Source: a virus
Taxonomy: Duplodnaviria; Heunggongvirae; Uroviricota; Caudoviricetes
Length of the DNA stretch: 4,111 nt
Virus record (IMG/VR): IMGVR_UViG_2695420687_000011
Direction: 5' to 3' (one strand)
Below, one piece after another: positions 392-4,111 of the stretch. Position 1 is the stretch's first letter. The number at the start of each line of letters is the position of its first letter. Under the pieces are notes generated by a model. That model had not been told where the DNA came from. It searched no databases and worked only from the letters and a program-made list of their open reading frames with translations. The position numbers and the translations under genes were made by a program.

Positions 392-443
392 TCTGACAGC
401 TTTCACGTACCACTCAGGCTGTTTTTCCACTTTCCAGTGATGC

Positions 444-704
444 TTACCCACGGCTTACCTCCTTTTCCTGTGGTTTTAACTCATTCCGGTTTTGATTAGA
501 TTGAAAGCGGGCAGGATAGAGAATCTGCATTTCGCTGATTTCTCCCTTAAAAAAATTGGCCAGACGCTCTGCCAGATCGATAGATGGAATTTGTTCCAGT
601 CTCTCAATACGACTCAGCGTCGCTGGATTAACCTGAACACCCGCAGCAACATGCTGCAAAGTAAATCCGTGCGCCTTACGCACATTTCGTAATGGTGATT
701 GCAT
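444..704 (-). CDS. Cro-like HTH transcriptional regulator (XRE family), 86 aa
   Basis: ATG at RC 702-704 preceded by SD GGAGG (RC of 709-713) with a 4-nt spacer. HTH-like segment GFTLQHVAAGVQVNPATLSRIERLEQ. Divergent from the CI-like gene across a 97-bp palindrome-rich region. TAA stop at RC 444-446. Confidence 0.8.
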   Translation of the reverse strand: MQSPLRNVRKAHGFTLQHVAAGVQVNPATLSRIERLEQIPSIDLAERLANFFKGEISEMQILYPARFQSNQNRNELKPQEKEVSRG

Positions 705-801
705 ATAACCTCCACATATTGCGTGATAAGCATATTATTTAACGCAAATATTTTGCGCAAGTTGATTTGCTTAACGCGCAATAAAGAAATGTAATAAACG
801 C
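705..801. promoter_or_regulatory. Divergent promoter/operator region between the Cro-like and CI-like genes (OR-like)
   Basis: Palindromes read directly: TTGCttaacgcGCAA (767-781), CGCAAAtatTTTGCG (743-757), TTGCGCAA (753-760), imperfect TTGCgtgataaGCAt (719-733). Candidate leftward promoter: -35 TTGCGC (RC of 755-760), 17-bp spacer, -10 TAATAT (RC of 732-737). Candidate rightward -10 TAATAA (792-797) would start the repressor mRNA at or near its ATG. Promoter calls are by eye only. Confidence 0.6.
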
Positions 802-1494
802 ATGAACATAGGAAATCGAGTCAGACAACTTCGCCAGGCGAAGAACATGAAAATCGCCGATCTCGCTGAAGCAATAGGAGTGGATGCGGCGAATATCTCA
901 CGCCTGGAAACAGGTAAGCAGAAACAATTCACTGAACAAGCCCTGAGTAATATTGCCAGGAGCTTAGGTGTTGATATTGCAGATCTCTTTACCTCAGACT
1001 TCAAAAGTAATACTGTATGTAAAAACAGTGCTTGTGAGGATGTTGCGCAGGTGAAGGATGTATTCCGTATTGAAATGCTGGATGTCAGTGCCAGTGCGGG
1101 AAATGGCCTTATCCAGGGCGGTGATGTCATTGATGTGATTCATGCCATTGAATACAGAACTGATAATGCTGTATCGATGTTTGGCGGACGGCCAGCCAAT
1201 CACATTAAAGTTATCAACGTTCGTGGGGACAGTATGTGTCCAACCATTGAGCCAGGAGATCTCATCTTCGTTGATGTCAGTATCAATCAGTTTGATGGAG
1301 ATGGTATCTATGTATTTGGTTTTGATGATAAAATTTATGTCAAACGACTGCAAATGATACCTGACAAACTACTGGTGATTTCTGATAACCAGATTTACCG
1401 TGAATGGGGAATTACCAGCGAAAATGAACACCGGTTTATGGTCTTTGGAAAGGTCTTAATCAGCCAGTCACAAACCCTTAAGCGACACAATTAA
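802..1494 (+). CDS. CI-type phage repressor: N-terminal HTH (XRE) plus C-terminal S24 LexA-like autopeptidase domain, 230 aa
   Basis: N-terminal HTH pattern NIGNRVRQLRQAKNMKIADLAEAIGVDAANISRLETGKQ. S24 catalytic motifs present: GDSM with Ser144 (codon 1231-1233), Lys181 in VKRL (codon 1342-1344), candidate Ala99-Gly100 cleavage bond (1096-1101). TAA stop 1492-1494. No clear SD upstream, consistent with a leaderless or weakly initiated message. Confidence 0.9.
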   Translation: MNIGNRVRQLRQAKNMKIADLAEAIGVDAANISRLETGKQKQFTEQALSNIARSLGVDIADLFTSDFKSNTVCKNSACEDVAQVKDVFRIEMLDVSASAGNGLIQGGDVIDVIHAIEYRTDNAVSMFGGRPANHIKVINVRGDSMCPTIEPGDLIFVDVSINQFDGDGIYVFGFDDKIYVKRLQMIPDKLLVISDNQIYREWGITSENEHRFMVFGKVLISQSQTLKRHN

Positions 1495-1514
1495 CCCTTA
1501 CCTCCTCATCAATT

Positions 1515-1539
1515 AGCCACCCGAAGGTGGCTTTTCATT
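1515..1539 (+). terminator. Candidate rho-independent terminator after the repressor gene
   Basis: Stem AGCCACC (1515-1521), loop CGAA, stem GGTGGCT (1526-1532), followed by TTTCATT. Lies 21 bp after the repressor stop. Confidence 0.5.
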
Positions 1540-1549
1540 ACCCATTAAA

Positions 1550-1602
1550 TTGCATATCTCGCAACAAAAACACTTGCATAATGCGCAACTTCATTTTATC
1601 TT
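1550..1602 (+). promoter_or_regulatory. OL-like tandem operator palindromes with candidate rightward promoter
   Basis: Two 15-bp TTGC-N7-GCAA palindromes, TTGCATATCTCGCAA (1550-1564) and TTGCATAATGCGCAA (1574-1588), centres 24 bp apart, same half-sites as 767-781. Candidate promoter -35 TTGCAT (1574-1579), 17-bp spacer, -10 TATCTT (1597-1602); weak match, by eye. Confidence 0.4.
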
Positions 1603-2013
1603 TCTTTCCAGACAAACAAACAAGGTACTAACAAAATTTGGTTGTAACACGGCGTATGGCACATGCGTCGTTAGCGGTCTGGGGACGTTAAAGGGGACAA
1701 TCCACTCCTTGCTCGGGCAAACAAACCAGGTAGCCGGAATGTGCAAGTCAATGATGATGCTGATAAGACGCCTAACCAGCGTCGCGATTCGGTTTGACGC
1801 CTGGGAAGAGACCAGGGTGCAACGATGAGGGCATTTATGGAACCGCGACAAAGTGTGGTGCCGTAACTGGCTAAGTGCTCTCAGCGTTGTGGTAATCCGC
1901 GAAATGGCGCGGCGGTAAGTATGGCGGGGTTATTCCTTCCCCGTTGAGGACACCGGGTTGTCAGGTTGACCATACGCTTAAGTGACAAGCCCACCACAAC
2001 AGCCACTGCTTTG

Positions 2014-2060
2014 GCGGTACCAGTTTGTACACTTGCTTCCGGCTGGTACCGCTCTTTTTA
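2014..2060 (+). terminator. Terminator-like hairpin: 10-bp stem with T-tract
   Basis: GCGGTACCAG (2014-2023) pairs with CTGGTACCGC (2043-2052) around a 19-nt loop, followed by TCTTTTTA (2053-2060). The loop is long for a classical intrinsic terminator. Confidence 0.4.
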
Positions 2061-2148
2061 CAAAACAGAGAAGAGCATCACCGGACGACGGGCTCATAAC
2101 CCAATCCACCCGGGCGGCTGCCACCGCAGGTGCTCTTCTCTGTTTTGT
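2060..2148. repeat. Perfect 18-bp inverted repeat flanking a 53-bp GC-rich spacer
   Basis: ACAAAACAGAGAAGAGCA (2060-2077) is the exact reverse complement of TGCTCTTCTCTGTTTTGT (2131-2148), verified base by base. Sits 36 bp upstream of the yfdP-like SD. Function unknown. Confidence 0.85.
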
Positions 2149-2196
2149 GGAGAAACCAACCGACCTTGCAGGGTCGATATGATGAGGAGCAGCAAA

Positions 2197-2559
2197 ATGG
2201 CTAGCGAACGCAGTACTGATGTGCAGGCATTTATCGGGGAGCTGGACGGCGGCGTATTTGAAACCAAAATCGGCGCTGTTCTCAGTGAAGTCGCTTCAGG
2301 TGTGATGAACACGAAAACCAAAGGGAAGGTCTCGCTCAACCTGGAAATCGAACCGTTTGATGAGAACCGTGTGAAAATAAAACACAAACTCTCATATGTT
2401 CGTCCGACTAACCGCGGGAAAATTTCCGAAGAAGACACCACCGAAACGCCGATGTATGTCAATCGCGGTGGTCGCCTGACTATTCTGCAGGAAGACCAAG
2501 GACAATTACTGACTCTTGCCGGTGAACCTGACGGAAAACTCCGCGCAGCAGGTCATTAA
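2197..2559 (+). CDS. yfdP: YfdP-like prophage protein of unknown function, 120 aa
   Basis: ATG 2197 preceded by SD GAGGAG (2184-2189) with a 7-nt spacer; TAA stop 2557-2559. Sequence (MASERSTDVQAFIGELDGG...) and length match my recollection of E. coli K-12 CPS-53 YfdP; not verified by search. An alternative start at ATG 2179 (AGGG SD at 2170-2173) cannot be excluded. Confidence 0.8.
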   Translation: MASERSTDVQAFIGELDGGVFETKIGAVLSEVASGVMNTKTKGKVSLNLEIEPFDENRVKIKHKLSYVRPTNRGKISEEDTTETPMYVNRGGRLTILQEDQGQLLTLAGEPDGKLRAAGH

Positions 2560-2624
2560 TATCGTTCTTAATTAACTGATTATTTATCTCATCACTGAAT
2601 ATCCTTATATAGTGAGGACTTATT

Positions 2625-3449
2625 ATGTCTCAGAACTTAGACGCAACCGCAATTAATCAAATCCATGCCCTTATTTCTGCTCAGGGTGTTAATGAAATTA
2701 TTAGTAAGATTGGTGCCGATGCTGTGGCATTGCCTGAGAATTTCCGCATTCATGATCTGGAAAAATTTAATTTAAATCGCTTCCGTTTCCGTGGTGCGCT
2801 TTCCACTGCCAGCATCGATGACTTTACCCGTTATTCTAAAGATCTTGCAGATGAAGGCACCCGCTGCTTTATCGATGCCGATAATATGCGTGCCGTCAGT
2901 GTGCTTAACCTGGGTACTATTGATGAACCAGGTCACGCAGATAACACCGCCACTCTCAAACTGAAAAAGACAGCACCGTTCTCTGCTCTGTTGTCTGTTA
3001 ATGGCGAGCGTAACTCCCAAAAGTCACTGGCAGAATGGATTGAAGACTGGGCCGACTACCTTGTGGGCTTTGATGCTAATGGTGACGCCATTCAGGCAAC
3101 CAAAGCGGCTGCGGCGATCCGTAAAATCACAATTGAAGCGAACCAGACCGCTGATTTTGAAGACAATGACTTCAGCGGCAAACGCTCCCTGATGGAGTCT
3201 GTCGAAGCGAAGACCAAAGACATTATGCCAGTGGCATTTGAATTTAAATGCGTTCCGTTTGAAGGCCTGAAAGAACGTCCGTTTAAATTACGCCTCAGCA
3301 TTATCACTGGCGATCGTCCTGTACTGGTTCTGCGCATTATTCAGCTGGAAGCGGTGCAGGAAGAAATGGCTAACGAATTTCGTGATCTGCTTGTTGAGAA
3401 ATTTAAAGACAGCAAAGTAGAAACCTTTATTGGTACTTTCACCGCCTGA
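2625..3449 (+). CDS. yfdQ: YfdQ-like prophage protein (DUF2303 family), 274 aa
   Basis: ATG 2625 preceded by SD GAGGA (2614-2618) with a 6-nt spacer; 274-codon ORF with TGA stop 3447-3449. Sequence ([21 protein letters not shown]...) and length match my recollection of K-12 YfdQ; not verified. Confidence 0.85.
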
Positions 3450-3461
3450 TTTCATTACTGC

Positions 3462-3483
3462 AAATGCCCCTGCGGGGGCATTT
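3462..3483 (+). terminator. GC-rich hairpin between yfdQ-like and yfdR-like genes (terminator or mRNA stability element)
   Basis: AAATGCCCC (3462-3470), loop TGCG, GGGGCATTT (3475-3483): 9-bp stem whose A/T ends give a short T-run (CATTTAT). Begins 13 bp after the yfdQ stop. Confidence 0.3.
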
Positions 3484-3576
3484 ATGGAAACATAATTTAC
3501 TCAATAATCGCCGGATGGTGAGGGCTTCCTTTTACCAGAATTCAGCGCGGTGCAGCGCATATACGTGGAGAACAAA

Positions 3577-3936
3577 ATGTCATTTATTAAAACTTTTTCC
3601 GGGAAGCATTTTTATTATGACAAGATAAATAAAGACGACATCGTTATTAACGATATCGCGGTTTCCCTTTCAAATATCTGTCGCTTTGCAGGACATCTTT
3701 CACACTTCTACAGCGTCGCCCAACATGCGGTGCTTTGCAGCCAGCTGGTACCGCAGGAATTTGCTTTTGAAGCGTTAATGCATGATGCAACAGAAGCATA
3801 TTGCCAGGACATCCCCGCACCACTGAAACGCCTTCTTCCTGACTATAAACGGATGGAAGAAAAAATAGACGCCGTAATCCGTGAGAAATACGGGTTACCT
3901 CCTGTTTGCTGGTTAATCAGGCAGTTACCGGCATAG
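3577..3936 (+). CDS. yfdR: YfdR-like HD-domain protein, apparently 3'-truncated (119 codons; the K-12 protein is longer as I recall)
   Basis: ATG 3577 preceded by GGAGA (3566-3570). HD-superfamily signature H...HD present (GHLSHFYSVAQH, ALMHDATEAY), but the ORF ends 9 codons after KYGLPPV (CWLIRQLPA then TAG at 3934-3936), before the distal Asp expected in HD domains. Sequence character changes near 3906. Confidence 0.7.
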   Translation: MSFIKTFSGKHFYYDKINKDDIVINDIAVSLSNICRFAGHLSHFYSVAQHAVLCSQLVPQEFAFEALMHDATEAYCQDIPAPLKRLLPDYKRMEEKIDAVIREKYGLPPVCWLIRQLPA

Positions 3937-4111
3937 TTCCAGATCATCTTGATTGGAACATCCAGCTTATCTTTACCACGAACACCGTCACGCAGCGCCG
4001 TCATCTCCGGGCCGCGTTCAATCGCATCGGTCCACATAAACATGGAAATGCTGGTCTGGATCGGATTCTCGAGAGTAGGCATACGAACAAACGGTAAGCT
4101 GTATGAACCTT
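3843..4111 (-). CDS. C-terminal part of an unidentified minus-strand ORF entering from beyond the right edge
   Basis: Minus-strand frame is open from 4111 to the stop at RC 3843-3845 (...GSYSLPFVRMPTLENPIQTSISMFMWTDAIERGPEMTALRDGVRGKDKLDVPIKMIWNYAGN...). Its last ~21 codons are antisense to the yfdR-like 3' end. Product not recognised. Confidence 0.45.
   Translation of the reverse strand, partial: GSYSLPFVRMPTLENPIQTSISMFMWTDAIERGPEMTALRDGVRGKDKLDVPIKMIWNYAGNCLINQQTGGNPYFSRITASIFSSIRL

Follow-up and report, generated by a model that had tools for sequence, protein, structure and literature searches.

What is an unusually long inverted repeat doing shortly upstream of yfdP, the first gene of the early-left operon, in a stretch of tailed-phage DNA (Caudoviricetes; IMG/VR record IMGVR_UViG_2695420687_000011; 4,111 nucleotides, the whole of which is called the window below)? 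A sequence-only reading had described a perfect 18/18 inverted repeat at positions 2060-2077 (ACAAAACAGAGAAGAGCA) and 2131-2148 with a 53-nt spacer, and had offered as possible roles paired binding sites for a dimeric regulator, an RNase III-type processing stem in the leader RNA, a cruciform or recombination site, or a small insertion resembling a miniature inverted-repeat transposable element (MITE). Our analysis showed that the repeat forms helix P1 of a 100-130 nt RNA, which is encoded on the plus strand, conserved, and shaped like a Y by a three-way junction. The junction with its nearly invariant hairpin, the widespread family to which it belongs, and the intrinsic terminator that abuts it had all escaped the earlier reading.

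The inverted repeat and the RNA it forms

The two arms are fully complementary, and the repeat lies far beyond chance, being the longest perfect inverted repeat of the window with a loop of at most 150 nt; 200 first-order Markov simulations of the window gave a longest inverted repeat of 13 bp, with a mode of 9. The palindromes noticed earlier in the spacer (CCCGGG at 2109-2114, and GCGG/CCGC at 2114-2117 and 2124-2127) were confirmed, as was the distance of 36 nt between the end of the right arm and the GAGGAG Shine–Dalgarno sequence of yfdP, and at the DNA level the repeat extends imperfectly to 25 bp (2060-2084 and 2124-2148). RNA folding of the plus strand yielded a helix between 2055-2079 and 2129-2153 with an energy of -51.4 kcal/mol (z = -7.5), and none of 200 dinucleotide shuffles was as stable. 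The allele with perfect 18/18 pairing is in the minority; in E. coli, the most frequent allele has one G.U pair (GAGC paired with GUUC), and a mismatch in the middle of P1 was found in 91 of 96 sequences of non-E. coli type. The parts of the RNA, all on the plus strand, are as follows.

2013-2053, plus strand: intrinsic-terminator-like hairpin, formed by GGCGGUACCAG, a 19-nt loop and CUGGUACCGCU (RNA fold)
2054-2059, plus strand: CUUUUU after the terminator hairpin, the U-tract of which doubles as the base of P1
2055-2079, plus strand: 5' strand of P1, containing the left arm (2060-2077); UUUUU at 2055-2059 pairs with GGAGA of the tail
2081-2113, plus strand: hairpin P2, with an outer stem formed by 2081-2087 and 2107-2113 that has two mismatches in this allele
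2114-2127, plus strand: hairpin P3 (GCGG, CUGCCA, CCGC), which measures 14 to about 40 nt in relatives
2129-2153, plus strand: 3' strand of P1, containing the right arm (2131-2148)
2149-2160, plus strand: conserved tail GGAGAAAC(C/U)AAC, the first five bases of which pair with the U-tract
2161-2176, plus strand: second hairpin (CGACCU, UGCA, GGGUCG; RNA fold and comparison of relatives)

The same order of parts recurs throughout the family, namely the terminator with its U-tract, the 5' strand of P1, one unpaired A, P2, P3, the 3' strand of P1, the tail, the second hairpin, and the first gene. The P1 length of 25 bp in the window falls within the range of all early-left members (20-27 bp). Of 123 distinct early-left contexts, 119 have a run of at least five U residues immediately 5' of P1, and in phage LLS the terminator scan placed a terminator-like site (9-bp stem with six G-C pairs and a CCUUUUUUAC tail) immediately against the motif. 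In P2, the outer stem, which ranges from 5 to 9 bp across the family, is followed by an asymmetric internal loop (AC versus AAUC), an inner stem of GGG (2090-2092) and CCC (2100-2102), and the loop CUCAUAA (2093-2099), and the core GAC-GGG-nnCAUnn-CCC-AAUCC is nearly invariant. P3 changes in size, so the distance between the two arms varies from 53 to about 80 nt. The second hairpin has a wholly different stem sequence in relatives, while its loop (U/G)GCA(G) recurs, and the loop of P3 is often UUCCUAAC or UUGCAG. Such loops were encountered repeatedly in otherwise unrelated hairpins, UUCCUAAC in P3 and UUGCAG or GGCAG in both P3 and the second hairpin (e.g., loci L114, L156, L186, L169, and L087). 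From these sequences, P3 and the second hairpin could conceivably touch through their loops, UGCA being self-complementary and the CUGC of the P3 loop in the window being able to pair with GCAG of the second loop.

One viral contig (L173, 9208-9336) is recombinant within the motif, with a left arm and P2 of the E. coli type and a P3 and right arm of another type. Judging from this contig, the conserved block is apparently a mosaic junction between phage modules.

Covariation and the functional strand

Loci were initially fetched by the core 18-mer and later by the 3' arm and tail alone, which avoided circularity. A covariance model was built from a MAFFT alignment of 25 distinct sequences, and a second sample of 96 distinct sequences, fetched by the tail only, was aligned with this model. 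In the first sample, 93.4% of the cells formed standard pairs, compared with 38-52% when the partners were slid by 1-3 columns; ten pairs changed on both sides, including a position of P1 that was G-C in 13 sequences and C-G in 12. The second sample behaved similarly (92.5% paired versus 36-52% slid), with compensatory changes at twelve pairs, among them five of the seven pairs of the P2 outer stem. These changes were seen in P1, P2, and P3, and RNAalifold independently recovered the junction together with the pairing of the U-tract and GGAGA. Many of the sequences are close kin, so that the cell counts overstate the number of independent events and the 10-12 positions with compensatory change are the safer figure.

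Within P1, 37 G.U cells were counted against 4 A.C cells, and U.G was the commonest state at one pair. This excess of G.U over A.C, which is predicted by neither a DNA palindrome nor a cruciform, indicates that the functional molecule is the plus-strand RNA, and we consider it very likely that the element is a functional RNA structure of that strand.

The invariance of the core among the loci collected first is partly an artefact, because they were fetched by the core sequence itself, and the tail-anchored sample corrects for this. There, the core was present in 186 of 188 distinct segments; the CAU at loop positions 3-5 was kept in 184-185 of these 186, and CCCAAUCC in 175-186 of them, depending on the position. 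The bases flanking CAU in the P2 loop vary, giving CUCAUAA, CUCAUUC, CCCAUAA, UUCAUAA, and CCCAUCA.

Distribution of the element

About 70 phage records, among them mEp460, cdtI, SfII, SfIV, SfV, ST64B, LLS, phiNP, and many Stx2c-converting phages, matched the region in BLAST searches of phage genomes, and scans of viral contigs, species genomes, and metagenomes raised the collection to several hundred loci. Of 5426 complete E. coli genomes, 2719 contain the 104-nt element, at a median of one and at most four places each, and the complete genomes of ST64B and LLS carry one copy each. Lambdoid prophages of the SfV/SfII/ST64B/mEp460/cdtI/LLS/e14 type have a single copy of it in the early-left leader, past the cI-type repressor and pL and ahead of the first early-left gene. 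In a scan of one genome per species, true matches were confined to the Enterobacterales (about 15 genera: Escherichia, Shigella, Citrobacter, Enterobacter, Kosakonia, Leclercia, Klebsiella, Raoultella, Phytobacter, Pseudescherichia, Buttiauxella, Mixta, Erwinia, Pantoea, and Pseudocitrobacter), with the exception of one metagenome-assembled genome (MAG) of the Acidobacteriaceae. The core 18-mer had about 35 matches outside the Enterobacterales among 185,579 species genomes; all but the latter were rejected, as they lacked the flanking stem and their number was at chance level.

In the Acidobacteriaceae copy (L239, 2545-2634, minus strand), P3 is missing, P1 is about 10 bp long, and P2 has 9 bp and an unrelated sequence. 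Copies of this type adjoin lysin-like and Dam-like genes and recur in contigs from peat and bog metagenomes (L282, L288, and L291). In Klebsiella phages, the middle of the spacer matches sequence located right after tRNA-Arg or tRNA-Asn, downstream of Q. The flanking helix of this type differs (GGCCUG/CAGGCC), both inner hairpins being kept through compensatory changes; the element begins 6 nt past the CCA of the tRNA, has a P1 of 6-7 bp followed by (A/G)CCA, measures about 70 nt, lies on the short constitutive transcript of the late promoter, and is followed in the late leader by a terminator-like hairpin that carries a long U run. Other variants with a short P1 (5-7 bp) were found in late-operon leaders after Q, three of them (L143, L284, and L290) following a terminator. 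One Mixta prophage has no terminator upstream of the motif, which starts about 20 nt past a predicted promoter.

Prophage CPS-53 of E. coli K-12 is devoid of the motif in the yfdO-yfdP spacer (L208, 5400-5530), the immunity region and leader having been deleted, and K-12 transcriptome data are therefore unusable for this copy. In CPS-53, iteron-like repeats (TCAGATTTTGACGGG) of the replication origin abut the Shine–Dalgarno sequence of yfdP, and these repeats are the published binding boxes of SrsR (YgfI) (PMC9181523). The copy in the e14 prophage, just 5' of xisE (L270, 5100-5201, minus strand, equivalent to NC_000913.3 ~1201099-1201200), has an intact P1 and a mutated P2 core (GGGUUAAUAACCCGACCC) and lies inside the annotation of ymfH (b1142). 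The ymfH open reading frame (ORF) is drawn over both the terminator and the motif, and ymfH is probably not a gene. Hypothetical ORFs likewise overlie the motif in mEp460 (gp36 and gp37), SfII, and many RefSeq genomes. In the SfII type (L002 and L086), the tail GGAGAAACUAACCG is fused straight to the hairpin between yfdQ and yfdR (GCCCCUGCGGGGGCAUUUAUGG; 3461-3510 in the window), so that yfdP and yfdQ are missing and the motif precedes yfdR. A further locus, in a gammaproteobacterial MAG (L257, ~3680-3740), contains an apparent initiator-tRNA gene without its T arm (…GGUAGCUCGUCGGGCUCAUAACCCAAUCCUGCUCCCGCAACCA), which may be an integration scar.

The element is without a match in Rfam 15 and without a description in the searchable, incomplete literature. 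A search of the whole window at E ≤ 1 returned nothing in 2050-2160, a search of a 211-nt region at E ≤ 10 returned only sub-threshold matches (E ≥ 0.15; microRNA precursors and the hairpin ribozyme), and one Klebsiella-phage copy gave nothing relevant at a permissive threshold. The accessible literature on yfdP, ymfH, ST64B small RNAs, Pas small RNAs, anti-small RNAs of enterohaemorrhagic E. coli, and RNase III maps held no description of it.

Candidate functions

Our preferred reading, held tentatively and built on analogy with phage lambda, is that P1 may be a processing helix of the RNase III type that forms on transcripts reading through the terminator and that presents or releases a core able to bind a host factor. 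The element would act in cis on RNA. Most pL transcripts would stop at the abutting intrinsic terminator; in read-through RNA, the U-tract and the next 20 nt would pair with the 3' strand and the GGAGA tail to give a duplex of about 25 bp, of a size suited to E. coli RNase III, and a cut by this enzyme would separate the long leader from the yfdP mRNA and free or present the P2-P3 core. Because the base of P1 is the U-tract of the terminator, the full helix is available only on read-through transcripts. The P2-P3 core would then be the functional module, with its unpaired bases (CAU in the loop and CCCAAUCC) as the binding site for a conserved host component, and P1 would be a context-specific processing or clamping helix, served by RNase III in early-left leaders and by tRNA-type processing beside tRNAs.

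Lambda offers two precedents: the N leader carries an RNase III site a short way upstream of the first early-left gene, and in the sib/tI region the RNase III substrate forms only on RNA that has read through the terminator. The motif shares with both a long helix in the pL transcript, with the N-leader site its placement shortly 5' of the first early-left gene, and with sib/tI the use of terminator sequence (here the U-tract) as part of the helix. It differs from them in having no sequence relation to either, in the three-way junction with a nearly invariant hairpin core that is closed by its helix, and in the short P1 found among its late-operon copies. About 22 bp of double-stranded RNA fit into RNase III (PMC6212723), and P1 offers a continuous helix of this length that is kept by compensatory change. 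Thus, of the processing stem suggested by the sequence-only reading, the plus-strand stem was borne out by covariation and its size fits, while cleavage is a step that we infer.

Several observations weigh against this preferred reading. A plain RNase III site would need no invariant P2, yet the P2 core persists where P1 is only 5-7 bp and is conserved far past the needs of a processing helix. At 5-7 bp in late-operon copies and about 10 bp in the Acidobacterial copy, P1 falls short of what RNase III requires, which means that the family as a whole cannot have processing as its shared function. The Mixta copy, with no terminator upstream, means that coupling to a terminator is not obligatory. 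Finally, the sole K-12 copy, that of e14, is degenerate and lies within a cryptic prophage, and a search for expression or cleavage data on that copy found none.

A second explanation, which we regard as doubtful, is that the element is a cis-acting antiterminator or anti-Rho RNA resembling put, in which the junction would bind the elongating RNA polymerase or a Nus factor, would render the polymerase insensitive to terminators further downstream and to Rho, and would replace N and nut in phages that have no N. Its position speaks for this, as the motif sits between pL and the first early-left gene, where lambda carries nutL and N and HK022 carries putL. It is found downstream of pL but usually right after a terminator, that is, immediately after it in the 119 of 123 contexts described above, where such an RNA cannot help, and most copies follow a terminator instead of preceding one as put does. 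The Mixta copy fits better, starting about 20 nt past the predicted start and free of an upstream terminator, as does the Klebsiella-phage type, which precedes a terminator-like hairpin with a long U run. The left operon of LLS, in contrast, has few downstream terminator-like sites, none of them as rich in G-C pairs as the one abutting the motif, and the late-operon copies occur in phages that already carry Q. The rightward operon of ST64B or LLS has no second copy of the motif, and no put model was run on either genome; HK639 also has a single annotated put, located in the left operon and similar in annotated size (126 nt). Nearly invariant unpaired bases over about 15 genera also point to a conserved host partner.

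The motif resembles the put sites of HK022 and HK639 in being a structured leader RNA of the early-left operon of N-less lambdoid phages. However, HK022-type put is about 70 nt long and consists of two stem-loops arranged in a V, with a primary sequence (AGACGAACGGCGCG...) common to putL, putR, and HK639 putL, whereas the motif is a closed junction of other sequence. Read-through at put is factor-independent and relies on the zinc-binding domain of the beta-prime subunit. The HK022 putL and HK639 putL-like sequences were retrieved and compared, and showed no similarity to the motif in sequence or shape; our covariance model (R1) had no match in HK022 or HK639 even at E ≤ 10. With the nut sites of lambda, P22, and phage 21, the motif shares a place in the leader between pL and the first gene and a conserved hairpin loop followed by a second small hairpin, and UGCUCUU in its 3' arm resembles boxA; unlike these sites, it is not followed by an N-like gene and has no 15-nt boxB with a GNRA-like pentaloop. 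A reading of UGCUCUU as boxA was rejected, since it is base-paired and covaries with its partner strand. As for the phages themselves, SfII, SfV, and SfIV were reported to be without N (PMC3851460), and so was LLS, for which the authors guessed at a put-like mechanism (PMC12315714), a context in keeping with an RNA that stands in for N.

A third explanation, that the element is a tRNA-like small RNA or decoy, seems unlikely to us. Here the P2-P3 core would be excised, by RNase III from early-left transcripts and by tRNA-processing enzymes from late ones; acting in trans as the mimic of a CAU anticodon arm, it would, for example, engage a host component that reads Met or fMet tRNA, whether an enzyme, a nuclease, or a ribosomal site. 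What suggests it is the majority hairpin GGG-CUCAUAA-CCC, which is identical to the anticodon stem-loop of the E. coli initiator tRNA, together with CAU being the most conserved part of the loop. Some copies, those of the Klebsiella phages, also directly follow phage tRNA genes and end in RCCA after their short P1, and P1 plus P3 amount in our reading to about 12 bp, resembling an acceptor stem stacked on a T stem. Strict mimicry is weakened by the loop position equivalent to U33, which is C in 18 of the 186 sequences, and unlike a tRNA the motif has no cloverleaf, D arm, or T loop. P3 is without T-loop sequence and the early-left type is without CCA, ARAGORN called no tRNA (its mitochondrial mode called the Acidobacterial copy only, weakly), and the Rfam tRNA model scored no copy, while the neighbouring tRNAs received 64-66 bits. 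The decoy, the put-like RNA, and the preferred RNase III helix are not mutually exclusive.

It is very improbable that the element acts at the level of DNA, be it by binding a dimeric regulator at paired half-sites, by forming a cruciform, or as a site of recombination. A long inverted repeat near a regulatory region would agree with such a role, as would the contig L173 that is recombinant inside the motif, although ordinary homologous recombination at a conserved block would be expected to yield just such a contig. All these readings are contradicted by RNA-like, strand-asymmetric substitutions (the excess of G.U over A.C in P1), by the variable spacing of the arms, and by a spacer that contains two further covarying helices and an invariant single-stranded core; moreover, relatives with a short P1 retain the core and not the arms. 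The MITE-like insertion can be practically dismissed, since, despite the 18-bp terminal inverted repeats around a short spacer that it shares with MITEs and repetitive extragenic palindromic (REP)-type repeats, the copy search of the 2719 E. coli genomes, ST64B, and LLS described above showed a mostly single-copy element with a conserved RNA fold at a constant place in the prophage leader, its flanks (TTTTT and GGAGA) are not a duplicated target site, and about 500 loci included no empty site.

Three narrower proposals were also tried and rejected. Base pairing between the P2 loop and the start codon of the following gene did not hold, as the loop variants CCCAUAA, CUCAUUC, UUCAUAA, and CCCAUCA came without a matching change near the AUG. 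Although an open frame runs through the motif into yfdP in the window, and in some relatives into their first gene, a coding role was discarded because the length changes of P3 are not multiples of three and substitutions track pairing rather than codons. A hammerhead or other ribozyme was set aside because CUGAUGA occurs only in the Klebsiella type, inside the P2 stem, and the junction is without conserved unpaired bases.

Genomic context of the window

The window corresponds to the immunity region of a lambdoid prophage of the SfV/SfII/mEp460/ST64B type, with the following features besides those of the RNA.

444-704, minus strand: Cro-like helix-turn-helix (HTH) gene (gene layout of the window)
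802-1494, plus strand: cI-type repressor gene, with HTH and peptidase S24 domains (Pfam PF00717 and HTH families)
1515-1532, plus strand: terminator-like hairpin closing the repressor transcript (terminator scan); SfII annotates a rho-independent terminator at the equivalent site
1550-1602, plus strand: proposed oL/pL, read by eye from the sequence
1609-2012, plus strand: long untranslated early-left leader of about 400 nt, with short ORFs only
2184-2189, plus strand: Shine–Dalgarno sequence GAGGAG
2197-2559, plus strand: yfdP, the first early-left gene here, with its ATG at 2197 (ORF list)
downstream of yfdP, plus strand: yfdQ (DUF2303) and then a truncated yfdR (gene layout of the window)

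The layout around the repressor gene matches that of SfII cI, mEp460 gp38, and ST64B sb38, and the orientation of this gene identifies the plus strand as the early-left direction. Two operator-like palindromes of the form TTGC-N7-GCAA (1550-1564 and 1574-1588) resemble those between cro and cI, and a weak pL can be proposed by eye, with TTGCAT (1574-1579), a spacing of 17 nt, TATCTT (1597-1602), and a start near 1609; a consensus promoter scan of the window placed no promoter above threshold at this site. Equivalent sites elsewhere are TTGACC-17-TAGATT in LLS, found by the tool, and TTGACA-17-CATAAT in e14.

About 600 nt without a credible gene separate the oL/pL region from yfdP, and the inverted repeat is positioned between pL and this first early-left gene. 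The only leader ORF tested, of 29 amino acids (1739-1828), had no Pfam match, and the fold of 1590-2200 gave z = -3.9. The leader at 1609-2012 is about 97-98% identical in many E. coli phages (cdtI, Ayreon, 2H10, and Stx2c phages), and it varies between phage mosaics, other motif-bearing phages sharing only the patches 1654-1681, 1729-1835, and 1874-1899. It may be a terminated leader RNA with a function of its own. The first gene in motif-bearing relatives is yfdP-like, apparently RdgC-like (judged by eye from the N-terminal sequence), yfdR-like, or xis, and the motif sits about 40-110 nt 5' of the next ORF in the contexts examined, whichever ORF this is.

Regarding the window as a whole, prophages in complete E. 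coli genomes match only 392-3906, a run of N occupies 384-391, and ambiguous bases are present. Its left end looks like a REP sequence by eye, ~15-52 forming an inverted repeat, and yfdR is cut at ~3905 and joined to unrelated sequence (3907-4111) with an ORF on the minus strand. These features give the window the look of a prophage remnant or junction.

Implications for early control in lambdoid phages

Early-left control in lambdoid phages without N had been the subject of a guess at a put-like mechanism in the case of LLS, while SfII, SfV, and SfIV had simply been recorded as N-less. A specific, strongly conserved RNA distinct from put has now been located between pL and the first early-left gene of such phages, and its fold and nearly invariant bases have been defined. 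It is common, being carried by approximately half of the complete E. coli genomes and by Stx2c-converting phages, cdtI, and the Shigella serotype-converting phages, and it is currently unannotated or hidden under spurious-looking hypothetical ORFs such as ymfH in K-12. To judge from the sequences compared, the same core appears to have been shuffled among early-left leaders, late leaders, and clusters of phage tRNA genes, and even to have reached an Acidobacterial prophage. It is possible, although we put this forward with considerable reserve, that the motif represents a new class of phage leader RNA in which the invariant hairpin (the nnCAUnn loop and CCCAAUCC) binds a universal host machine, which could be RNA polymerase or Nus factors, or alternatively a component that reads the initiator tRNA. 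If the partner were the initiator-tRNA-reading component, the RNA would be an anticodon-arm decoy; if it were RNA polymerase or Nus factors, the motif would constitute a third, RNA-only route of early antitermination for lambdoid phages that have neither N nor put.

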